Of a stretch of DNA of 64,000 nucleotides, positions 5,265 through 16,559 are shown piece after piece. The stretch lies in NCBI GenBank assembly GCA_018672055.1, contig JABHGM010000001.1, positions 608,977 through 672,976 of the forward strand. The letters run 5' to 3'. The stretch's first letter is position 1. Each line of letters starts with the position of its first letter. The DNA is from a bacterium. GTDB taxonomy: Bacteria; Patescibacteriota; Patescibacteriia; UBA1558; UBA10009. Below the pieces are notes generated by a model. The model had not been told where the DNA came from. It saw only the letters and a list, made by a program, of their open reading frames with translations, and did no database searches. The position numbers and the translations under genes were made by a program.

Positions 5265-5293
5265 TTGACAAAATAATGTAAATATGGTAGTAT
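5265..5293 (+). promoter_or_regulatory. Putative sigma-70-type promoter for the 5352 gene
   Basis: TTGACA, 17-bp spacer, TAGTAT. Followed by an AAGGAA RBS ahead of the ATG at 5352. Confidence 0.4.
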
Positions 5294-5351: not shown

Positions 5352-5756
5352 ATGAAATATTTTATTTCTATTCTAATAGTTATGGTTAACTTATCTACCA
5401 TAAATGCGCAGAAAGAAACCATGACATGCAATGAGATTCTTAGCTTCACTACAATAATTAACAGGACTATTGAGATTGAAAATAATGAATATAAAATGTA
5501 TGCAATCTTGCAAGTTCCTGTTTCTGAAAACGAGTGGCTTCTTGAGCATGGATATGCTTTAGACGAAATTGTTTATGTAAAAGGGTTTGGTAAAAGTGAT
5601 AATTTAACACTAACAAGAGAAATCGCTACAATGGACGCAAGAGGAAATGCAGCTTGTCTCGGATATGAGGAAATAAGAATCAATCAAACCGTGAAAAAGG
5701 ATTCTTGGCAAAAAAATAAAAGAATGATAGATAAATTATTATTTTGGAGAAAATAA
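5352..5756 (+). CDS. Small secreted protein (134 aa) with predicted signal peptide; hypothetical
   Basis: N-terminus MKYFISILIVMVNLSTINAQ resembles a Sec signal peptide. RBS present. Strong terminator immediately downstream. Confidence 0.5.
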   Translation: MKYFISILIVMVNLSTINAQKETMTCNEILSFTTIINRTIEIENNEYKMYAILQVPVSENEWLLEHGYALDEIVYVKGFGKSDNLTLTREIATMDARGNAACLGYEEIRINQTVKKDSWQKNKRMIDKLLFWRK

Positions 5757-6058: not shown

Positions 6059-7861
6059 ATGGAAAATAGTGGTGAAAAATTTTTACACCAAAAAGATCCT
6101 AAATTACACGTTAGTGATTTTGTTGAACACGAGCAATCTAGAAAGAAGAGATCAAGTCAAGAAACATCACAAAAGCCTGTTGATAAGATTTCTGATTGGT
6201 TAGAAGTTATTGAAAAAACTCATATGGGTCATGAAGATGACCCTCGTGTTTTAGAACGTCTTAAAGATTATTATCATAACCAGCATGTTATTAAACCAGA
6301 TGATGTTCCAGAAAGCTATTTTGAAAATCAGAGAAGATTAGCTAGAGAACAAGGGCATGGTGATGTTGAAGTTTCAGATATAGATAAACAACAATTAACT
6401 GAAGCAATTATTTCAGATCAACGTTCTACTCTTGATAATTGGATAAATTATTACACTTCTTCACATTCAGAAAGTTTTCCTACTTGGTCTAAGCATTGGT
6501 CATTTAATGGCATGTTGAAATTATCAAATTATGATAAGGAAAAACATAAATTTAATAAAAGAAGTAAAGATACTGTAGCTCCTTTTCCAGATTTAAATCG
6601 TGAAGCTTTAGCTCATGTAGTTAATGCAATAGTGAAACAAGTTAAAGATGTAAAAGTGAAAGAAGCTAAAGATAAACAAGTTAAAGATGAAGATACACTA
6701 GATATACAGAAGGATCCAGAATTTGAAAAATTACTTCAAGATGCTAATTTTGCTAAACTATATGCTTATGCAATTGAAAAGGTAACTCCTGCTAAGGAAA
6801 GTGAATTATTAAGCACTAAAGGTGAATGGATTAAATATGATAAAGATTCAGATCATATGCCATTAGTTAATTCAATTCAAGGTCATGGTACTGGTTGGTG
6901 TACAGCTGGAGAATCAACAGCTGAAAGTCAGCTAAAAAATGGTGACTTTTTTGTTTATTATTCTCAAGATAAAAAAGGTGATTTTAAGACTCCTAGAGCA
7001 GCTATTAGAATGAATGGTAATGATATAGCTGAAGTTAGAGGTATAGCTCATGAACAAAATTTAGATCCATATATTAATGATACAGTAGACGAAAAATTAA
7101 AAGATTTTCCAAATGGTGAAGCGTATAAAAAGAAAACAGCTGATATGAAAAGATTAACTGAAATTGAAAATATTTTAAAAAAGGGACGAGAATTAGATAA
7201 AAATGATTTGAGATTTTTATATCAAGTTGATGATACAATAGAAGGATTTGGCTATCGTGATGATCCTAGAATAGAAGAAATTATAGAAGAAAGAGATAAA
7301 AAAAGTGATTTATCTCAAATTTTTAATATTGAAAAAAATAAGATTAGTATAACTAAAAATGAAGCGATTAATAACGAAGATATTGTTTATCATTATGGTG
7401 GTCTTTATCTAACCGGCTTAACTTCACTAGAAGGTTTAAAATTACCGGAAACTGTTAATGGTGATTTAGATCTAAGAGGTTTAACTTCAGCAGAAGGTTT
7501 AAGATTGCCAGAAACTGTCAATGGTAATTTAAATCTAAGCGGCTTAACTTCAGCAGAAGGCTTAAAACTACCAGAAACTGTCAATGGTAATTTAAGTCTA
7601 ATCAGCCTAACCTCAGCAGAAGGCTTAAAATTTCCAGAAACTGTCAATGGTAATTTAAATCTAATCAGCTTAACTTCAGCAGATGGTTTAAATCTCCCAG
7701 AAACTGTCAATGGTGGTCTTCATCTAACCGGCTTAACTTCACTAGAAGGCTTAAAACTGCCAGAAACTGTCAATGGTTTTATTTATATAGGAGGCTTAGT
7801 AGAGGCAGAAATATCAGATTTAAAAAAAAGTGATAAAGTTTTCATGGTTAAAGAAGGTTGA
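6059..7861 (+). CDS. Large hypothetical protein (600 aa) with six C-terminal 20-aa leucine-rich (LRR-like) tandem repeats
   Basis: Repeats LTSxEGLKLPETVNGxLxLxG occur six times. The N-terminal ~440 aa are non-repetitive. Confidence 0.6.
   Translation: MENSGEKFLHQKDPKLHVSDFVEHEQSRKKRSSQETSQKPVDKISDWLEVIEKTHMGHEDDPRVLERLKDYYHNQHVIKPDDVPESYFENQRRLAREQGHGDVEVSDIDKQQLTEAIISDQRSTLDNWINYYTSSHSESFPTWSKHWSFNGMLKLSNYDKEKHKFNKRSKDTVAPFPDLNREALAHVVNAIVKQVKDVKVKEAKDKQVKDEDTLDIQKDPEFEKLLQDANFAKLYAYAIEKVTPAKESELLSTKGEWIKYDKDSDHMPLVNSIQGHGTGWCTAGESTAESQLKNGDFFVYYSQDKKGDFKTPRAAIRMNGNDIAEVRGIAHEQNLDPYINDTVDEKLKDFPNGEAYKKKTADMKRLTEIENILKKGRELDKNDLRFLYQVDDTIEGFGYRDDPRIEEIIEERDKKSDLSQIFNIEKNKISITKNEAINNEDIVYHYGGLYLTGLTSLEGLKLPETVNGDLDLRGLTSAEGLRLPETVNGNLNLSGLTSAEGLKLPETVNGNLSLISLTSAEGLKFPETVNGNLNLISLTSADGLNLPETVNGGLHLTGLTSLEGLKLPETVNGFIYIGGLVEAEISDLKKSDKVFMVKEG
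7396..7790 (+). repeat. Six in-frame 60-bp tandem coding repeats with a duplicated lead-in
   Basis: Units start at 7418. The first and sixth units, and the GGTGGTCTT(T/C)ATCTAACCGGC lead-in before them, are near-identical. The antisense ORF 7405..7710 is a repeat shadow. Confidence 0.85.
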
Positions 7862-7904: not shown

Positions 7905-7978
7905 TCGGAGGTCGTCTAACGGTAGGACACCTGGTTTTGGTCCAGGCAATAGGGGTTCGATTCCCTTCCTCCGAGCCA
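7905..7978 (+). tRNA. tRNA-Gln (anticodon UUG), CCA encoded
   Basis: Folded by hand. The 7-bp acceptor stem TCGGAGG/CCTCCGA pairs. D-arm GTCT-AACGGTA-GGAC carries the GG. Anticodon stem CCTGG/CCAGG encloses loop TTTTGGT, giving anticodon TTG. T-arm AGGGG-TTCGATT-CCCTT is followed by discriminator G and CCA. Confidence 0.8.
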
Positions 7979-8249: not shown

Positions 8250-8495
8250 ATGAGTGAAAAAAGAGATATGATAGATGGTAAATGGTATAAACTTACACCA
8301 CCATCGGTTATAGGTGGAAAAAGTTATTCTCTTGTTTGCTGTGAGTATAAAGATCTAAATCCAAAGTATCCAAATGATTATATTGTAAAAGGTATATCAG
8401 AAGGTGGAACTGAACTTGAAAGTTTTATCTTACGCTTTGGAGATAAAGGTGTATGTGTAGAACTAGCAGAACCACCAACTCAAGAATCAAATTAA
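8250..8495 (+). CDS. Hypothetical small protein (81 aa)
   Basis: Good RBS (AGGAGACCATA-ATG), dedicated promoter and terminator. No recognisable domain. Confidence 0.5.
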   Translation: MSEKRDMIDGKWYKLTPPSVIGGKSYSLVCCEYKDLNPKYPNDYIVKGISEGGTELESFILRFGDKGVCVELAEPPTQESN

Positions 8496-8521
8496 GAGTA
8501 GCTGAATAAGCTTATTACTTA

Positions 8522-8547
8522 AGACTTCCTTCGGGAGGTCTTTTTTT
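8522..8547 (+). terminator. Rho-independent terminator
   Basis: Hairpin AGACTTCC-TTCG-GGAGGTCT followed by TTTTTTT. Confidence 0.6.
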
Positions 8548-8562
8548 AACCTAAATAAAAAA

Positions 8563-8589
8563 AACCGTCTTTAATTATCTGACGGTTTT
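8563..8589 (-). terminator. Conserved terminator module T1 of paralog A. An A-tract precedes it and a T-rich run follows.
   Basis: AACCGTCTTTAATTATCTGACGGTT hairpin. Nearly identical to 9749-9775 and related to 16062-16081. Confidence 0.6.
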
Positions 8590-8615
8590 GATATAAATGA
8601 TATTTGATTAAAGTG

Positions 8616-9011
8616 TTACTTTATTACAAATTCAATATTTATCTGGTCCGTAAATTTACCTTTGCTTTCATATAATATTCCAACAGAAATTATTACATTT
8701 TCATTCCAAGCTTTTTCTAAACCTTTAAAAGCTTTATCTGTTATTACAGTATTTGAAAATCCATAATATTCTCTTTGTTCAGTAGTTAGATGAATAGTTA
8801 CATGTCCTTTGTCTATTAACTTGTATACTATATCTAAGTCTATAATAAACTTTTTTAGCATACGAGGTGTAATAACATTTAACATGGTATTGATAGCGTC
8901 TGATTTATCTTTATCTACATCCGTGATTATTTCGCTAATTTTACCAAGCTTTTTTGATCTTTTTTGAATAACATTCATTAAATAATTATTTTGTAATTTA
9001 TCGGTCTCCAT
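8616..9011 (-). CDS. Small-protein family member A (131 aa); function unknown
   Basis: Homologous to the 9786..10196 and 16096..16461 products (shared YY/…LEKAWNENVII block). RBS AAAGAGG present. Confidence 0.6.
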   Translation of the reverse strand: METDKLQNNYLMNVIQKRSKKLGKISEIITDVDKDKSDAINTMLNVITPRMLKKFIIDLDIVYKLIDKGHVTIHLTTEQREYYGFSNTVITDKAFKGLEKAWNENVIISVGILYESKGKFTDQINIEFVIK

Positions 9012-9032
9012 GATTATTCCTCTTTATTGTTT

Positions 9033-9093
9033 TATATGTGCAGTTTTTATACCTTATTACGCATTTATTATTTTGTCAATAATATATGTTATA
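9033..9093 (-). promoter_or_regulatory. Conserved ~75-bp upstream module P1 with TTGACAAAATAAT and TATAAAA elements
   Basis: Near-identical to 10222-10283 (upstream of paralog B). Contains TTGACA and TATAAA hexamers and the AAAGAGG RBS. Confidence 0.5.
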
Positions 9094-9117
9094 TTTTTTG
9101 TTTTATATAATAAAAAA

Positions 9118-9141
9118 GCTCAGCAGAAATCTCTGCTGAGC
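9118..9141 (-). terminator. Rho-independent terminator of the 9158-9571 gene
   Basis: Hairpin GCTCAGCAG(aaatct)CTGCTGAGC. On the minus strand it is followed by TTTTTTATT. Confidence 0.6.
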
Positions 9142-9157
9142 ACTTAGGATATATTGT

Positions 9158-9571
9158 TTAGCCTCTTAACAATGAGCTAAATTCAATTTCACCATAACGT
9201 GAGTTTGTTTCGTATCGAAGCTTTGCTTCAACATGTGTGTCCAATGAATTTTTATCACGTTTTTTACCTGTTGAAATATTGCCATGCACTAAGATGTACC
9301 ATACACCTTTGCCCATGTTTGTTAACGTGATTACGGATTTAACTATGAGAAAGTACTTTTTATGTAAATCTACAATACCAAGTTTTTCCATCTCCACCCC
9401 AGGTCCAAAATTTTCTGTATATGTGGTAACTGGATCACCGGGAGTGAATTTAAACCATAATGGATCTACAAATATGATTTTATTTTGATGAATAAAGGCT
9501 GCGCAGATCTCAGATCTACGTGGGCCATTATCAATTTTTGGCATAACATGTGGTGTTCTTGGTGTTGTCAT
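9158..9571 (-). CDS. Hypothetical protein (137 aa) with visibly higher GC than its surroundings. The track ORF extends to 9610, but the RBS supports a start at 9571.
   Basis: AAAGGAG lies 8 nt before the ATG giving MTTPRTPHV…; the upstream MCPYKR extension has no RBS. Codons are richer in G/C than neighbouring genes. No domain recognised. Confidence 0.5.
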   Translation of the reverse strand: MTTPRTPHVMPKIDNGPRRSEICAAFIHQNKIIFVDPLWFKFTPGDPVTTYTENFGPGVEMEKLGIVDLHKKYFLIVKSVITLTNMGKGVWYILVHGNISTGKKRDKNSLDTHVEAKLRYETNSRYGEIEFSSLLRG

Positions 9572-9692
9572 ACAACAACTCCTTTCTTTTTTGCGCTTAT
9601 AAGGGCACATTCCTTGTTGCTTTGTTCTTAATGAGCCACCTACCCATACAGGCAGGGATTTTGTTAACCAATACCTTATCGATTAACAGGTT

Positions 9693-9728
9693 ACTATATA
9701 CTAGCATTTATAAATTGTCAATGCTAGT
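9693..9728 (-). promoter_or_regulatory. Putative promoter with -35 inside a 7-bp inverted repeat, followed by a ~115-nt leader
   Basis: Minus strand reads TTGACA, 17 bp, TATAGT. The plus strand shows CTAGCAT(…13 nt incl. -35…)ATGCTAG. The leader up to 9572 contains GC-rich hairpin-capable segments. Confidence 0.4.
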
Positions 9729-9748
9729 TTTTAAATTTTAATAAAAAA

Positions 9749-9775
9749 GAACCGTCTTAAATTATCTGACGGTTC
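9749..9775 (-). terminator. Conserved terminator module T2 of paralog B
   Basis: GAACCGTCTTAAATTATCTGACGGTTC, flanked by an A-tract and T-rich run. About 90% identical to 8563-8589. Confidence 0.6.
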
Positions 9776-9785
9776 TGATGAAATA

Positions 9786-10196
9786 TTATTCCTTGATTTC
9801 TAGAAATACTAATTCGAATTTAATTTCTAACTTTTTCTCGTCTCTAGAAAGGTTTATGGGGAAGAATGTAAGATTAATTATTACGTTTCCATTCCATTTT
9901 TTTTCTAATAATTCAAATTTATTTTGAGTAAGGAATTTATCTTCAAAATAATATTTTCCTATATCATTACCTTCTAATACTATAGAAATTTTTTCTTTAT
10001 ATAGTAACTTCTCTAGTATACTATAGTCTTGAATAAAATCTTTTAGGTTATCTGGTGTCTTATGCAGAAAAGTTCTAATTACGTTAGATTCATATTCATC
10101 TCCCATTTTAATCATTTTTTTAACACTTTCAAGTATTTCTGATCTGGCTAGAATGGCTTCTAACAAATGTTTTTCTTTTACATCACCTATAGCCAT
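9786..10196 (-). CDS. Small-protein family member B (136 aa)
   Basis: Homologous to 8616..9011 and 16096..16461. RBS AAAGGAG present. Confidence 0.6.
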   Translation of the reverse strand: MAIGDVKEKHLLEAILARSEILESVKKMIKMGDEYESNVIRTFLHKTPDNLKDFIQDYSILEKLLYKEKISIVLEGNDIGKYYFEDKFLTQNKFELLEKKWNGNVIINLTFFPINLSRDEKKLEIKFELVFLEIKE

Positions 10197-10221
10197 GATT
10201 ACTCCTTTTTGGCTTATTTTT

Positions 10222-10283
10222 TTATATGTTCAGTTTTTATACCTTATTACTCATTTATCATTTTGTCAATAATATATATATAA
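10222..10283 (-). promoter_or_regulatory. Conserved upstream module P2, paralogous to 9033-9093
   Basis: The TTATATGT(G/T)CAGTTTTTATACCTTATTAC(G/T)CATTTAT(T/C)ATTTTGTCAATAATATAT block is shared with P1. Confidence 0.5.
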
Positions 10284-10295
10284 ATAACTAAAACA

Positions 10296-10324
10296 TTGAC
10301 AAAATAAGAGAAAAATGATAGACT
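10296..10324 (+). promoter_or_regulatory. Putative promoter of the DEAD-box helicase gene, extended -10
   Basis: TTGACA, 17 bp, TGaTAGACT. The ATG at 10332 lies ~8 nt downstream, giving a near-leaderless transcript. Confidence 0.4.
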
Positions 10325-12162: not shown

Positions 12163-12777
12163 ATGAATAGTGGAAAAGAATTAGTAACTGAATTAATAAA
12201 ACTTCAGACTAAATATACTAAAACAGATAGAGCAATTACTACACGTGAAAAGTATGAAGCTTTTTATTTAAATAAATTTGTTAAAGAATTAGATTTTAAT
12301 AATAAATTATTAAGAGAATCATTAATTGAACATGTAGGGCATTTACCAATTATTGCTACTTTTTTATACCCTCATATTGAGAATAGAGATAAAATAGATT
12401 TAGGTAAAACATTATTAATGTTAGCTATACATGATATTGGTGAAACTGAAGTAGGTGATGTTATAACATATAAGAAAACAAAAGAGCATCAAAATTTAGA
12501 AATAGCTGCTGCTAAAAATATACTTGATGAGTCATATATTGATATTTTTCAAGAGTTTGAAGATGTAGAAAGCTTAGAAGCTAAATTTGCTAAAGCTATT
12601 GATTCATTAGCTCCACTTTTACATGAGGTAGATTTACCAGATGTAACTGCAAAGAGATTTAAATATTTTGGTTTTAATGAAGAAACTATTATAAAAAAGA
12701 AAAGACCCCTTTTTATTTGGGATAGTGTGTTGCTAGGTATATTTGATTATTGTATTGAAGAATATAAAAAGATTTAA
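12163..12777 (+). CDS. HD-domain phosphohydrolase (YfbR-like 5'-deoxynucleotidase family)
   Basis: H…HD signature: HVGHLP … LAIHDIGETEVGD. Confidence 0.6.
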   Translation: MNSGKELVTELIKLQTKYTKTDRAITTREKYEAFYLNKFVKELDFNNKLLRESLIEHVGHLPIIATFLYPHIENRDKIDLGKTLLMLAIHDIGETEVGDVITYKKTKEHQNLEIAAAKNILDESYIDIFQEFEDVESLEAKFAKAIDSLAPLLHEVDLPDVTAKRFKYFGFNEETIIKKKRPLFIWDSVLLGIFDYCIEEYKKI

Positions 12778-13432: not shown

Positions 13433-13459
13433 AAAACTCAAATGATAAGGAGAAATGAA

Positions 13460-14083
13460 ATGAAGAAATGTAGATTATACTTTATGGGTTTACTGATTTT
13501 TGCAGTAATGATACTAACAGGCTGTAATGCATGTGCAAATAACAGTTCTGAGGCAAAAGATCAGGCAACGGTTGCTAAACAGCAGGGGATTTATCAAGAT
13601 GTGCAACCAGTGCATATCTATGATTATTCTATTCCCAGAGATATATATCAGCAGATATATGATGTTACAACGACTCAAGTTGTTGCAACATATTCCGTGA
13701 TTGAATCAATTACTGGATTAACTCGGTACGAATGTCCTTCTATGGGTTATGCTATTCCAGCTGATGTTAGTTTAACGAATCCTCTCCAGGGTACTTATAA
13801 CTTTGATAGTGTTGGAGTAGATGAGTTTTCTCAGGTAATTGAACAGGCAGAGCCTAATGGTCTATTCAGTTCAAAGAATACTGATGCCACATGGGTAATG
13901 TGTGTAGAGTTGGGAAGCGGAGAGGTGTATCCTATTTATGTAGAACATAAAGTAATGACATTTCCATTTATTATGGAAAAAAATAAGAAAGATCAATGGG
14001 TTCGAGCTGATAATAAACCAATCGCTTTCAAAATCGAAATCAAAAATGGTAATCAAGGAGGCAAACCTCCTAAGGTAAATTAA
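13460..14083 (+). CDS. Predicted lipoprotein, hypothetical. The track ORF starts at 13442.
   Basis: AAGGAGA sits 6 nt before the ATG at 13460. Signal plus lipobox MKKCRLYFMGLLIFAVMILTGC. GC-richer composition. Confidence 0.6.
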   Translation: MKKCRLYFMGLLIFAVMILTGCNACANNSSEAKDQATVAKQQGIYQDVQPVHIYDYSIPRDIYQQIYDVTTTQVVATYSVIESITGLTRYECPSMGYAIPADVSLTNPLQGTYNFDSVGVDEFSQVIEQAEPNGLFSSKNTDATWVMCVELGSGEVYPIYVEHKVMTFPFIMEKNKKDQWVRADNKPIAFKIEIKNGNQGGKPPKVN

Positions 14084-14160: not shown

Positions 14161-15951
14161 TTATTTAGCTCTATGTACTCTAACTCTTTCGCTTTCAGTT
14201 AAAGCTTGTTTTCTTAAACGTATATTATGTGGGGTAACTTCTAAGTATTCATCTTCGCTCATTATGCTCATACCACGTTCTAGGGTTAAATCAATAGGTG
14301 GTGTTAAGTTTATTGCTTCATCAGCACCTGAGGCTCTCATATTACTTAGTTGTTTACCTTTAATTGGGTTAACTGTCATATCATCGCCTTTAGCTGCATT
14401 ACCGATTACCATACCCTCATATACTTCTGTATTAGCTGGTATATATAGTTCGCCTCTATTTTGTAAGTTATATAGTGAAAAGCCTAAGGCTTTACCTGTA
14501 GCCATTGAAATCATAGAACCTAGTTCTGTTTTTTTAATTTCACCAGCATATGGTTTAAAACCAATTACGTGAGTATATAATATGCCTTCACCCTTAGTAT
14601 CAACTACAAATTCATTCTTATAACCTAGTAATCCACGTGTTGGTATTTCAAAGATAAGTCTTGTATTACCATGTTCTGGTCCCATTTCTAAAAGGTTACC
14701 TTTTCTTTTAGCTAGTTTTTTAATAACTGCACCTGTCATATCATCTGGTACATTAATAGTTACTTCTTCAAAAGGTTCTGATTTTTTACCATCTATATCT
14801 TTAATAATAACGTGAGGTTGAGAAATTTGTAATTCATAACCTTCACGTCTCATATTTTCTAAAAGAATTGCAATATGCATTTCACCTCTACCATGTACTT
14901 TGTAATATTCTGAAACAGAGAAATCTATTTTAAGTCCTACATTAACTTCTAATTCTTTTTCTAATCTTTCTTTAATTTGAGTATTTGTAACAAACTTACC
15001 ATCTTGTCCAGCATACGGAGAGTTATTTACGTAAAAATTTAAGGAAATTGTTGGTTCATCAATACTAATTGCTGGTAGTGGTTCTTGCTTTTCATCATCA
15101 CATATTGTTTCACCAATATATATATCAGGAAGTCCAGCAATCATAACAATGTCACCGGCACTAGCAACTTTTACTTCTTCTCTGGCTACTCCTTTAAAAG
15201 TAAATAGTTTTGTAATCTTGCCTTTTCTTATAGTACCATCTACATTTTTTATAAAAATATTATCTGCTTGTTTTATAGTTCCTTGATAGATTCTACCGAT
15301 AGCTAAACGTCCTAAGTAATCATCATAAGCTAAATTAAAAGGTTGAACAGTTAAAGGTTTTTTTAAAGCCTCTTCAAGTGAAGCAACTGGTACATGTTCT
15401 AAAATAGCGTCTAATAGGGGAGTTAAATCTTTTTTTTCATCATCATAATTTGTTATAGCAACACCTTGTTTAGCTATAGCATAAAGAGTAGTAAAATCTA
15501 ATTGTTCATCAGTTGCTCCTAGATCTAAAAATAGTTCATATACTTGTTCTTGTGCTATATCAGGTTGAGCTGCTGGTTTATCAATTTTATTTATTACGAC
15601 AATTGGTTTTAAACCTAAATCAAGAGACTTCTTTAAAACAAACTTAGTTTGAGGCATTGGTCCTTCTTGAGCATCAACAACTAAAATAACACTATCAATT
15701 GATCTTAAAACACGTTCTACCTCGGAACCGAAATCAGCATGTCCTGGAGTATCAACTATATTAATCTTAGATTCTTTGTAGTAGACAGAAGTATTTTTTG
15801 AATAAATAGTAATACCACGCTCTTGTTCTAGAGCGTCGTTATCCATACTAGTATCACTGGTAGACATACCTGTTTGTTGCATTAGAGCATCAGTTAAGGT
15901 TGTTTTACCATGATCTACATGGGCTATAATTGCTATATTTCTAATAGTCAT
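14161..15951 (-). CDS. typA: Translational GTPase TypA/BipA
   Basis: AIIAHVDHGKTTL, DTPGHADF, NKID G-domain motifs. Length 596 aa. Confidence 0.9.
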   Translation of the reverse strand: MTIRNIAIIAHVDHGKTTLTDALMQQTGMSTSDTSMDNDALEQERGITIYSKNTSVYYKESKINIVDTPGHADFGSEVERVLRSIDSVILVVDAQEGPMPQTKFVLKKSLDLGLKPIVVINKIDKPAAQPDIAQEQVYELFLDLGATDEQLDFTTLYAIAKQGVAITNYDDEKKDLTPLLDAILEHVPVASLEEALKKPLTVQPFNLAYDDYLGRLAIGRIYQGTIKQADNIFIKNVDGTIRKGKITKLFTFKGVAREEVKVASAGDIVMIAGLPDIYIGETICDDEKQEPLPAISIDEPTISLNFYVNNSPYAGQDGKFVTNTQIKERLEKELEVNVGLKIDFSVSEYYKVHGRGEMHIAILLENMRREGYELQISQPHVIIKDIDGKKSEPFEEVTINVPDDMTGAVIKKLAKRKGNLLEMGPEHGNTRLIFEIPTRGLLGYKNEFVVDTKGEGILYTHVIGFKPYAGEIKKTELGSMISMATGKALGFSLYNLQNRGELYIPANTEVYEGMVIGNAAKGDDMTVNPIKGKQLSNMRASGADEAINLTPPIDLTLERGMSIMSEDEYLEVTPHNIRLRKQALTESERVRVHRAK

Positions 15952-15962
15952 AATTTAAGGGT

Positions 15963-15988
15963 TTAAATAAAACCGCCTCAACAGGCGG
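15963..15988 (-). promoter_or_regulatory. Terminator-like hairpin plus U-tract inside the typA 5' leader (possible attenuator)
   Basis: Minus strand reads CCGCCT-GTTG-AGGCGG then TTTTATTTAA. It lies between the putative typA promoter and its ATG. Confidence 0.4.
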
Positions 15989-16007: not shown

Positions 16008-16036
16008 ATAATACTATATCTTTAAATAAAAGTCAA
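16008..16036 (-). promoter_or_regulatory. Putative typA promoter
   Basis: Minus strand TTGACT, 17 bp, TATTAT. Confidence 0.4.
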
Positions 16037-16061
16037 GTGTAATAGGCGTTTGTATTAAAAA

Positions 16062-16081
16062 AACCGTCATTATTGACGGTT
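16062..16081 (-). terminator. Conserved terminator module T3 of paralog C
   Basis: AACCGTCATTATTGACGGTT followed by TGATTTGAT. Same stem sequence as T1 and T2. Confidence 0.55.
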
Positions 16082-16095
16082 TGATTTGATAGTAT

Positions 16096-16461
16096 TTAAA
16101 CTAAGGCAACTTTGATACTTATAACTATCCATTCATATGGCACTTGCGTAAAAGTAAATGAAATATTGTTATCCCAAGCTTTTGTTAGTTTTTCAAAACT
16201 GGCTTTTGTTGTCCGATGATCCTTAAAGACAGAATTTCTATTTTTTTCCTTAAGAATGATAGATAACTCTATTTTGCCTTTTTTTATTAAAGCCTCTATT
16301 AAGCCTGATGCTTTAATATAGTGGTGGAGCTCTTTGGGCGCAGCTTCAATTAACTTACGTATAACATCATTTTCTTTTTCTTTAAGGTCTTGAAACTTTT
16401 TTTCATATTCAGTTTCTAACTCCAACTTGGCAGTTATTAGATTAGATAACAGATTTGCCAT
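16096..16461 (-). CDS. Small-protein family member C (121 aa)
   Basis: Shares the LIxKGKIxLSIIL…FEKLTKAWDNN block with members A and B. Upstream TTGACAAAATA element. Confidence 0.55.
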   Translation of the reverse strand: MANLLSNLITAKLELETEYEKKFQDLKEKENDVIRKLIEAAPKELHHYIKASGLIEALIKKGKIELSIILKEKNRNSVFKDHRTTKASFEKLTKAWDNNISFTFTQVPYEWIVISIKVALV

Positions 16462-16559
16462 TATTACCTCGTTTTAGATTTTTGTATTATTTACTAATAT
16501 CTTTTTGTACAAGATAGGTCAGCTTACTCTTGTTATTCTATTTTGTCAAGGTTTTGGTC

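Follow-up and report, generated by a model that had tools for sequence, protein, structure and literature searches.

Mycoplasma has gene families, vsp, vlp and vsa, that encode variable lipoproteins; their 5′ regions are nearly identical while their coding regions diverge. These lipoproteins carry signal peptides and internal repeats, the genes are switched by site-specific recombination or by homopolymer tracts, and the repertoire varies between strains. The three genes described here (A, B and C) are likewise paralogues in a small AT-rich genome with a promoter and 5′ UTR in common and coding sequences that differ. They lie in a window of 64 kb, the whole stretch of DNA that was analysed. 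Unlike the Mycoplasma families, their products are cytoplasmic, no recombinase or switch tract accompanies them and the population does not vary; the marks of a contingency or antigenic-variation system, namely strain variation of coding content and a switch element in the window, were both absent.

Arrays of orphan immunity genes from polymorphic toxin systems, such as those of the PoNi type (PF08928), provide a second point of comparison, since A, B and C are also small, cytoplasmic, fast-evolving and clustered as paralogues. They differ from such arrays in that the match of A to the PoNi profile stays below the gathering score, PADLOC returned no hit and other members of the family are solitary. 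No cognate toxin of the PoNi type is adjacent: the genes are monocistronic and no toxin domain was found in their neighbours.

A third parallel is offered by phage morons, which in the account given in PMC3594210 are independent transcription units added between genes. As far as that account describes morons, the units of A, B and C resemble them in that a small ORF is found between its own predicted promoter and predicted factor-independent terminator, and in that the units are inserted between unrelated genes, are accessory and are absent from the same site in relatives. They depart from that description in lacking a phage context (no PHROG match for the genes or their neighbours, no IMG/VR or phage-genome match for the genes), in being duplicated within the chromosome, and in having, for A and B, a GC content that does not look clearly foreign.

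The reading preferred here, with a probability of about 0.6, is that the whole expression unit was duplicated, that its regulatory parts have been under purifying selection and that the encoded accessory proteins have evolved fast. Each paralogue would be a self-contained transcription unit with a sigma-70-type promoter whose -35 box is consensus, a short A-rich leader in which the Shine-Dalgarno sequence is good, a small ORF and an intrinsic terminator. A and B would have arisen by duplication of an entire unit, with an unrelated gene (X) now between them, and C would be an older paralogue. After duplication, ordinary purifying selection would have held the regulatory parts, and the proteins would have kept the core residues of their family and diverged very fast elsewhere, in the manner of accessory orphan proteins. 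With these parts retained, similar expression of the copies and their insulation from adjacent genes are probable.

Organization of the three genes

The host belongs to the Patescibacteria (CPR) and has a reduced AT-rich genome of about 1 Mb. The features of the locus are as follows.

8553..8589, minus strand: putative terminator of A, found by pattern match; 9-bp stem AAAACCGUC/GACGGUUUU, 11-nt loop, U-tract
8616..9011, minus strand: copy A, 131 aa, member of an uncharacterised family of ~120-aa proteins
9012..9087, minus strand: predicted promoter/leader of A, repeat family D1 (64 nt, 94% identical to B); AT-rich upstream element, -35 TTGACA at 9074-9079, 17-nt spacer, -10 TAAGGT at 9051-9056, leader of ~32 nt without structure, Shine-Dalgarno GAGG
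9118..9141, minus strand: putative terminator of X, stem GCUCAGCAG, unrelated to AACCGTC
9158..9571, minus strand: gene X, a 137-aa orphan between A and B and unrelated to them, GC 35-38%
9693-9721, minus strand: X's own predicted promoter
9740..9776, minus strand: putative terminator of B, repeat family D2; stem AGAACCGUC/GACGGUUCU, 11-nt loop
9786..10196, minus strand: copy B, 136 aa, sister of A in the NJ tree
10197..10277, minus strand: predicted promoter/leader of B, repeat family D1; -35 at 10264-10269, 17-nt spacer, -10 TAAGGT at 10241-10246, Shine-Dalgarno AGGAG
16054..16082, minus strand: putative terminator of C; stem AAACCGUCA/UGACGGUUU, 4-nt loop, U-tract
16096..16461, minus strand: copy C, 121 aa, the most family-typical paralogue
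16462..16549, minus strand: predicted promoter/leader of C, with the architecture of A and B in common and not the sequence; -35 TTGACAAAAT at 16540-16549, 17-nt spacer, -10 TAAGCT at 16521-16526, leader of ~60 nt, Shine-Dalgarno GAGG

A first, sequence-only reading of this DNA had described three homologous genes with shared flanks, and that observation is confirmed; its interpretation of the flanks and the coding content is partly supported. The ORFs have the coordinates it gave and lengths within the range that it stated (121-136 aa), and their products are true paralogues, with pairwise BLASTP identities of 35% for A and B (E 1e-14), 33% for B and C (E 1e-10) and 21% for A and C (E 1e-5). 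A profile built from 35 family members from beyond the present genome gave full-length matches to C (88.9 bits), A (65.4) and B (57.6), and the next best of the 333 window ORFs scored 3.8 bits. The NJ tree places A and B as sisters and C apart from them.

All three copies lie within 8 kb, and no further copies or repeat tracts were found in the window. Their neighbours are a DEAD-helicase gene, typA, pil genes and a tRNA gene; C comes last, after the pilM-N-O cluster, and stands upstream of typA. Repeat families D1-D3 keep a constant spacing, which is 1187-1190 bp between the A and B repeats. The GC content of A and B (23-27%) compared with that of the window (28.5%) does not mark them as clearly foreign. 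No match to X was obtained in the family libraries (Pfam, NCBIfam, PADLOC, PHROG) or by structure.

Predicted terminators and promoters

The sequences right after the stop codons have the form of intrinsic terminators, with 9-bp stems followed by 6-8 U. The pattern AACCGTC-N4-14-GACGGTT has three matches in the 64 kb and none in 100 shuffles, and all three are found 11-28 nt downstream of the stop codons of A, B and C (28 nt in the case of A), as expected from the earlier claim of a common hairpin after each gene. Predicted folding energies are -10.2 kcal/mol for the A hairpin (z -3.1), -12.9 for that of B (z -4.9) and -11.2 for that of C (z -4.2), which has the same core as the other two. The TGAT that had been placed after the hairpin is present there on the plus strand; in the sense of the genes it is an ATCA preceding the hairpin, and this prefix is kept with the hairpin core in all three paralogues. 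Between the terminator blocks of A and B, identity is 81% over 52 nt (92% over a 36-nt core); the similarity starts a few nucleotides ahead of the stem and stops where the U-tract ends. The loops agree at 10 of 11 positions, and the B stem differs from the A stem by a compensatory change from A-U to G-C, which argues for selection on the stem structure. All three hairpins are probably active as terminators.

When compared with Rfam, neither leaders nor hairpins gave a match; only the tRNA-Gln reached the gathering score, and nothing credible was obtained between 8400 and 10400 at E≤1. The hairpin pattern has at least 118 chance matches in metagenome DNA, and among the matches listed none came from this organism or from DNA encoding a family member.

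On the upstream side, A and B are 94% identical over 64 nt without gaps and agree at 75 of 84 positions with gaps, in keeping with the near-identity over ~75 bp that had been reported, and the similarity block extends from about 10 nt before the -35 box through the ATG. The elements read TTGACA-17-TAAGGT in A and B and TTGACA-17-TAAGCT in C, which is the form of a sigma-70-type promoter, and activity of all three is likely. They went unlisted in a consensus scan because the -10 box matches at only 3 of 6 positions. That every gene has the same upstream module is correct for A and B and not for C, which has in common with them only TTGACAAAAT, a -10 box (here TAAGCT) at the same distance of 17 nt and the Shine-Dalgarno sequence; when the flanks were compared by BLAST, only A and B matched each other significantly. 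RNA folding predicts unstructured leaders, and a structured leader RNA was ruled out on that ground. The promoter of B stands back-to-back with that of the DEAD-helicase gene at 10296.

Judged by these sequence features, the flanks are candidate promoter/leader modules and intrinsic terminators that are specific to these genes within the window. It is hardly credible that they are instead the organism's generic promoter and terminator consensus. A generic origin does fit the 10-mer TTGACAAAAT, which occurs at five promoters in the window (including those at 5265 and 10296) and also in a relative, and it fits the TTGACA-like -35 boxes that are used by all nearby promoter-like sites. However, a 27-mer from the A/B leader, downstream of the -35 box, occurs in the 64 kb at A and B only and is absent from shuffled sequence, and the AACCGTC stem is similarly confined to the three genes. 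About 10 other terminators between 5 and 20 kb use different stems, and the AACCGTC stem is not generic, given that the terminator of X has an unrelated one. The 10-mer is thus the one exception to flanks that are otherwise gene-specific across the 64-kb window.

Divergence of flanks and proteins

The coding sequences of the copies are merely 56-63% identical at the nucleotide level, and the differences between A and B are spread across the whole CDS without one variable segment. Targeted mutagenesis of the DGR type was rejected on the indirect grounds that these differences are CDS-wide and that the window has no extra coding-segment repeats. The proteins are exceptionally diverged, with 31-35% identity, whereas the flanks are not exceptionally conserved. 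Orthologous upstream regions in the closest relative are 77% identical at typA and about 81% identical at the DEAD-helicase promoter, and at third codon positions, counted where the residue is unchanged, identity is 71-74%; between A and B the corresponding value is 71% (27/38, from 38 codons, with a saturation plateau of 0.60). Since orthologous promoters keep 77-81% identity at similar synonymous divergence, the conservation of the A and B flanks is about normal for the lineage. The earlier remark that the proteins have diverged more than the flanks is therefore accurate as an observation, but the values for housekeeping promoters do not allow it to be taken as a sign of special flank conservation.

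In A and B, conservation of the 17-nt spacer, the leader and the 11-nt loop nearly equals that of the hexamers and the stem. Such near-uniform conservation is not needed for simple promoter and terminator function, and it leaves room for gene conversion or for an additional binding site. Under concerted evolution, short-tract gene conversion between copies 1.2 kb apart would homogenize the A and B flanks and would either end at the already diverged CDS or be counter-selected there. This is a possible but distinctly less favoured explanation. Near-uniform conservation that includes a spacer, leader and loop with no obvious sequence-specific role is what conversion would produce, and it would also agree with A and B lying close together while the more distant C has much less in common with them. 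On the other hand, the similarity blocks end exactly at the limits of functional elements, the longest perfect run (~20 nt) is marginal for homologous recombination, orthologous promoters are similarly conserved without any conversion partner, and the compensatory stem change speaks for structural selection. Selection rather than gene conversion appears to keep the flanks alike.

Understood as the duplication of a whole expression unit, the locus would be a clean small example of that process in a reduced, AT-rich CPR genome, and one in which regulatory DNA can outlast protein sequence. It would be largely a case of ordinary gene-family evolution, of value mainly for the annotation of the family and opening no major question alone.

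The protein family and its predicted fold

The family is a rare, uncharacterised group of soluble cytoplasmic proteins of ~120 aa, represented at E<1e-3 by 38 clusters (50% identity, public metagenomes and genomes) among 1.84 billion representatives. No signal peptide was found in A, B or C. In the family alignment L97 and W101 are invariant and P48, L64 and G68 are at least 90% conserved; these core positions correspond to a Pro after helix 1, a Leu, a Gly before strand 1 and an L...W that ends the last helix. A and C contain all of them, and in B only the Gly is missing. The motif pattern AP..L..F, (Y)G, YGF, L.KAW..V.I is common to the family and to A, B and C, as is the predicted architecture, in which the N-terminal half is rich in helices and the C-terminal half is beta-alpha-beta-beta. 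The YY(G/F)F block that had been assigned to all three proteins is missing from C, in which NSVF is found instead.

An AlphaFold2 model with a pLDDT of 92.3 predicts that a long helix at the N terminus is followed by two short helices and, at the C terminus, by a beta-alpha-beta-beta unit (a first model, made from three sequences, had a pLDDT of 47 and was discarded). Scans of A, B, C and the 38 members against Pfam, NCBIfam, PADLOC and PHROG gave scattered sub-threshold matches only, in line with the earlier statement that no Pfam signature could be recognized. Profile and predicted-structure searches, which the sequence-only reading had recommended, returned nothing below E 0.48 from the PDB and no significant fold neighbour (best E 0.03, TM ≤0.33). 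Among the sub-threshold matches, that of A to PoNi_N is collinear and full-length at 13.3 bits, compared with a gathering cut-off of 22.4; of the three paralogues only A gives it, and of the 38 members one does. Membership in WXG100 was considered for the W-x-G of many members and was dropped, there being no Pfam hit and a Trp that, in the model, closes a helix ahead of a strand. The family is flagged here for its combination of a confident predicted structure with no annotation and no detectable structural relatives.

Other members are single monocistronic genes with near-consensus TTGACA promoters and unrelated terminators of their own. They are single-copy in their loci, whereas the present locus has three copies, of which A and B are more derived than C. 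No conserved gene neighbour was seen across the members viewed in context; some have a tRNA, recombinase or PDDEXK gene nearby, and the distribution of the family is patchy.

Because the family conserves no polar residue and does conserve an aromatic-Gly loop (YGF) and a Lys-rich helix with KAW at its end, A, B and C could tentatively be regarded as non-enzymatic binding proteins. Their target might be another protein or a nucleic acid, and a conflict- or immunity-like function is conceivable. A further proposal is that the conserved promoter and hairpin are binding sites of the small proteins themselves, or of a common regulator, and serve auto- or co-regulation at the DNA or RNA level. This is improbable, although several observations are compatible with it: the hairpin core and ATCA prefix persist in all three units despite protein identities of 21-33%, A and B show conservation along the entire spacer and leader, the Lys-rich helix and aromatic loop are features of the whole family, and most of the weak fold resemblances are to alpha/beta domains that bind nucleic acid (Alba, KH, SpoVS). 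These resemblances, however, are insignificant by the values given above, members have pI values between 5.6 and 10.0, and homologues elsewhere carry unrelated hairpins and promoters. Nor does the conservation of the stem call for a special explanation, since orthologues retain GC-rich stems as well, the hairpin in the typA leader being one example.

A broader and equally speculative suggestion is that these proteins form a new fold class of fast-evolving small binders, either immunity- or inhibitor-like or autoregulators acting on hairpin and operator, which are carried on portable promoter-gene-terminator cassettes and expanded in this genome through an arms race or episymbiosis, with the hairpin and promoter as cognate sites. 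If they were conflict inhibitors or autoregulatory nucleic-acid binders, three diverged copies with matched expression signals would make a handy system for the study of specificity.

Population variation and relatives

The active "diversifying coding content" that had been suggested earlier is unsupported. The exact proteins A, B and C occur in 164, 164 and 173 sample blocks, much as does a neighbouring 142-aa gene (160); a single variant cluster, of B, was found at 99% identity among 5.8 billion clusters. The metagenomic check that had been advised thus shows that the genes are not hypervariable in the population, and the arrangement is identical in 24 of 24 long contigs.

The same data bear on a cassette or contingency system in which the constant flanks would act as recombination handles for the swapping of coding cassettes. 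Constant flanks around divergent coding sequences are the architecture that such a system would have, and the islet of small orphan genes next to tRNA-Gln in which A, B and C are found, the patchiness of the family, the closeness of some members to a tRNA, recombinase or PDDEXK gene, and the PoNi_N match of A could be read in the same way. The idea is nonetheless very unlikely. Besides the lack of population variation, the window is free of recombinases, repeat tracts and silent cassettes, a signal peptide is absent from the proteins and no toxin gene is adjacent, and the PoNi_N match is well below its cut-off and is seen in only one of the 38 members.

Word-indexed protein searches recovered A, B and C from the same species only. 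Searches for related loci in genome, metagenome and viral collections yielded no relative, a weak negative, as the identical counts of 598/600 candidates suggest that chance matches to degenerate AT-rich patterns filled the candidate lists; no sister-species orthologues were found in those searches. IMG/VR and phage genomes gave no match, and tblastn against phages and plasmids gave nothing. The nearest sampled relatives, which were reached by following synteny from typA and have TypA identities of 88%, 85% and 84%, carry neither a family member nor the hairpin at the syntenic sites. Coincident contig breaks upstream of typA in the 88% relative were considered as a possible repeat signal from the paralogue flanks; the 3′ end of an IS-type transposase accounts for them.

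Three paralogous transcription units

Three small ORFs, A, B and C, were located on the minus strand, with an unrelated gene, X, lying between A and B:

8616-9011, minus: gene A, ORF, 131 aa
9158-9571, minus: gene X, orphan, 137 aa, between B and A and unrelated to both
9786-10196, minus: gene B, ORF, 136 aa
16096-16461, minus: gene C, ORF, 121 aa

The homology of A, B and C proposed in the sequence-only reading is borne out by BLASTP (A-B, 35% identity, E 1e-14; B-C, 33%, E 1e-10; A-C, 21%, E 1e-5). A and B are sisters in a distance tree, with C separate, and tblastn and a family HMM found no fourth copy within the 64-kb window.

Sequence features predict that each of A, B and C is a complete transcription unit. 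The A and B promoters consist of an AT-rich stretch, a -35 box (TTGACA), a 17-nt spacer and a -10 box (TAAGGT), followed by an unstructured leader of about 32 nt and, ahead of the ATG, a Shine-Dalgarno sequence (GAGG or AGGAG). C repeats this layout (TTGACAAAAT, 17 nt, TAAGCT), but its upstream sequence is otherwise unrelated and its leader is longer; the shared upstream module thus holds as sequence for A and B (64-nt promoter/leader block, 94% identical in a repeat search) and for C as layout. The hairpin noted earlier downstream of all three genes was confirmed: AACCGTC-N4-14-GACGGTT has three matches in the window versus none in 100 shuffles, all of them 11-28 nt 3′ of the A, B and C stop codons. 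Each hairpin has a 9-bp stem with the core CCGUC/GACGG, then a U-tract, and folds clearly more stably than shuffles (z -3.1 to -4.9). Between A and B (52-nt terminator block, 81% identical) one stem pair differs on both sides, A-U to G-C, a compensatory change pointing to selection on the hairpin structure itself. The last gene of the pilM-N-O cluster ends 98 bp upstream of C with no terminator between, and C may also be co-transcribed with that cluster; other family members have no linkage to pilus genes.

Such flanks might be the organism's generic promoter and terminator consensus. This applies to TTGACAAAAT: the DEAD-box helicase (10296) and the gene at 5352 have promoters headed by it too, and a related genome contains it as well, which makes it a lineage-typical extended -35. 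For the remainder the generic explanation is refuted within the window: the A/B 27-mer after TTGACAAAAT does not occur elsewhere in it, BLAST with the flanks gives significant matches for A against B only, and the stems of other terminators within 5-20 kb all differ from the A/B/C hairpin. A collection scan gave only chance matches among the matches listed.

Divergence of flanks and proteins

An independent repeat search recovered three collinear A/B blocks at a constant spacing of 1187-1190 bp: the promoter/leader, the terminator and the most conserved coding segment, the last of them 42 nt long and 79% identical. Across the full coding region, A/B identity is only 56-63% in nucleotides and 31-35% in amino acids. 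Third codon positions at unchanged residues are 71% identical (27/38), against a saturation plateau of 0.60 derived from the codon usage of this genome; this is far below the value for a recent duplication at flank divergence (P = 0.002 for 89%). When this genome is compared with its closest relative, third positions are 71% identical in typA and 74% in the DEAD helicase, at protein identities of 88% and 76%. The typA promoter/leader is 77% identical between the two (86/111), the DEAD promoter from -35 to ATG about 81%, and the typA leader hairpin retains its GC-rich stem with a different loop. Set against these housekeeping promoters and stems, the A/B flanks are 89% and 85% identical, so that at comparable synonymous divergence housekeeping flanks are conserved almost as well. 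Flank conservation is therefore near the housekeeping level, and the unusual feature is the protein divergence.

Most likely, whole expression units were duplicated and their regulatory parts then held by purifying selection, so that the copies would retain the same strong, insulated (predicted) expression; the proteins would be accessory orphans that evolve fast and keep their fold. Alternatively, gene conversion limited to the flanks could conceivably keep those of A and B alike: conservation of the spacer, leader and loop nearly reaches that of the functional boxes. Against this, the ends of the similarity blocks coincide exactly with those of the functional elements, and no perfect run is long.

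Distribution and population variation

A 947-kb contig of GCA_018663345.1 and an ENA contig both match the window at 100% identity, and named TypA relatives assign it to Patescibacteria. As exact sequences, A and B each occur in 164 sample blocks and C in 173, versus 160 for a neighbouring 142-aa gene, and among 5.8 billion clusters B has a single further one at 99% identity. A, B and C are not hypervariable in the population, and the "diversifying coding content" first suggested is not supported as an active process. With neither population variation nor any switch element in the window, a system of cassettes or contingency genes is disfavoured. The A/B/C pattern recalls the mycoplasma variable-lipoprotein families, in which 5′ regions stay constant and coding sequences diverge, but every testable defining feature of mycoplasma-type switching is absent. 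In architecture the units also resemble phage morons, which are autonomous promoter-gene-terminator units (PMC3594210), but they lack any phage context.

The nearest sampled relatives (TypA 88%, 85% and 84% identical) keep the typA-DEAD helicase neighbourhood, and no family member or A/B/C-type hairpin was found there in any of them; A, B and C are therefore accessory and lineage-specific. In the closest relative an IS-type transposase end occupies the site where C would be. This rve-like transposase (...YNTKRPHWSL...) lies directly upstream of typA, and four contigs from different samples (L016-L019) all break within its 3′ end (first ~110 nt).

Gene X, which may be a later insertion, carries a promoter of its own and a different terminator, and its GC content (35-38%) exceeds that of A/B (23-27%); its leader of ~120 nt (9572-9692) is predicted to fold only slightly more stably than shuffled sequence (z -1.9). 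A tRNA-Gln (7905-7978, plus) is followed by an islet (8250-10200) of four independent small orphans (an 81-aa ORF, A, X and B), each with its own terminator. At this position beyond the DEAD-helicase gene the 84-85% TypA relatives carry different genes, and the contigs of the 88% relative end just past the helicase.

An unannotated protein family

Scans against Pfam, NCBIfam, PADLOC and PHROGs gave only scattered sub-threshold matches, the most suggestive being PoNi_N for A (13.3 bits, cut-off 22.4), in keeping with the earlier remark that no Pfam-like signature was recognisable. Profile searches, as proposed at that stage, place the proteins in an unannotated family. Searched exhaustively with a profile, 1.84 billion cluster representatives yielded 38 clusters at E<1e-3, all of 114-152 aa and with the same motif pattern. 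Against a profile built solely from the 35 outside members, C reaches 88.9 bits, A 65.4 and B 57.6. This makes all three members of the family, C a typical one and A and B derived ones. The other members lie on contigs of 34-60% GC and are single-copy within the stretches seen; each is monocistronic, with a promoter close to the TTGACA consensus and an unrelated terminator of its own. No conserved neighbour gene was found in those stretches; one member follows a tRNA, one is near a recombinase and one near a PDDEXK gene.

An AlphaFold2 model from the 38-sequence alignment is confident (pLDDT 92.3, pTM 0.78), with predicted helices at 10-46, 49-57, 60-66 and 87-100, strands at 69-75, 105-112 and 122-129, and one short helix after the first strand. 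Foldseek against PDB and BFVD returned no significant neighbour (best matches E 0.003-0.03, TM <=0.43: H-NOX, Alba, SpoVS, a PilM subdomain and unnamed phage proteins), and a PDB sequence profile search was empty; the predicted fold is thus without a detectable neighbour in the libraries used, and the family deserves annotation. Conservation falls on structural residues (P, L, G, L, W), an aromatic-Gly loop and a Lys-rich helix; the family alignment contains no conserved acidic, His or Cys residue hinting at catalysis, and the pI of members spans 5.6 to 10. The proteins may be small binding proteins without enzymatic activity, for which an immunity-/inhibitor-like or a nucleic-acid-binding role is possible, neither backed by a significant match.

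Other features of the locus

16008-16036, minus: typA promoter, with the ATG at 15951
15973-15988, minus: typA leader hairpin, between promoter and ATG, GC-rich and then a T-run: CCGCCTGTTGAGGCGG TTTTATTT
6059-7861, plus: 600-aa orphan protein
13442-14083, plus: 213-aa lipoprotein-like ORF, GC 36-40%

The typA leader hairpin resembles a terminator within a 5′ UTR, is also present upstream of typA in L016-L019, where its T-run is conserved with the stem, and may be a leader attenuator; it has no Rfam match. The 600-aa orphan, with no Pfam or PHROG match, carries C-terminal tandem 21-aa leucine-rich-type repeats LTSAEGLKLPETVNGNLNL (about 7405-7780, DNA period 63 bp). The lipoprotein-like ORF matches PHROG 24725 (function unknown, E 3e-12), the only clear phage-family match near A/B/C. 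The 85%-TypA relative has a pair of near-identical promoter modules, CCCTTGACAAAATGGGGGGGGGTAGTGATAA, whose spacer contains a G9 tract (locus L014, about 15290-15330 and 12290-12330, minus; likewise in L015). They precede a radical-SAM gene, and a 41-aa ORF that has a radical-SAM/SPASM gene after it; the locus resembles a RiPP-type cluster whose duplicated promoters may be prone to slippage.
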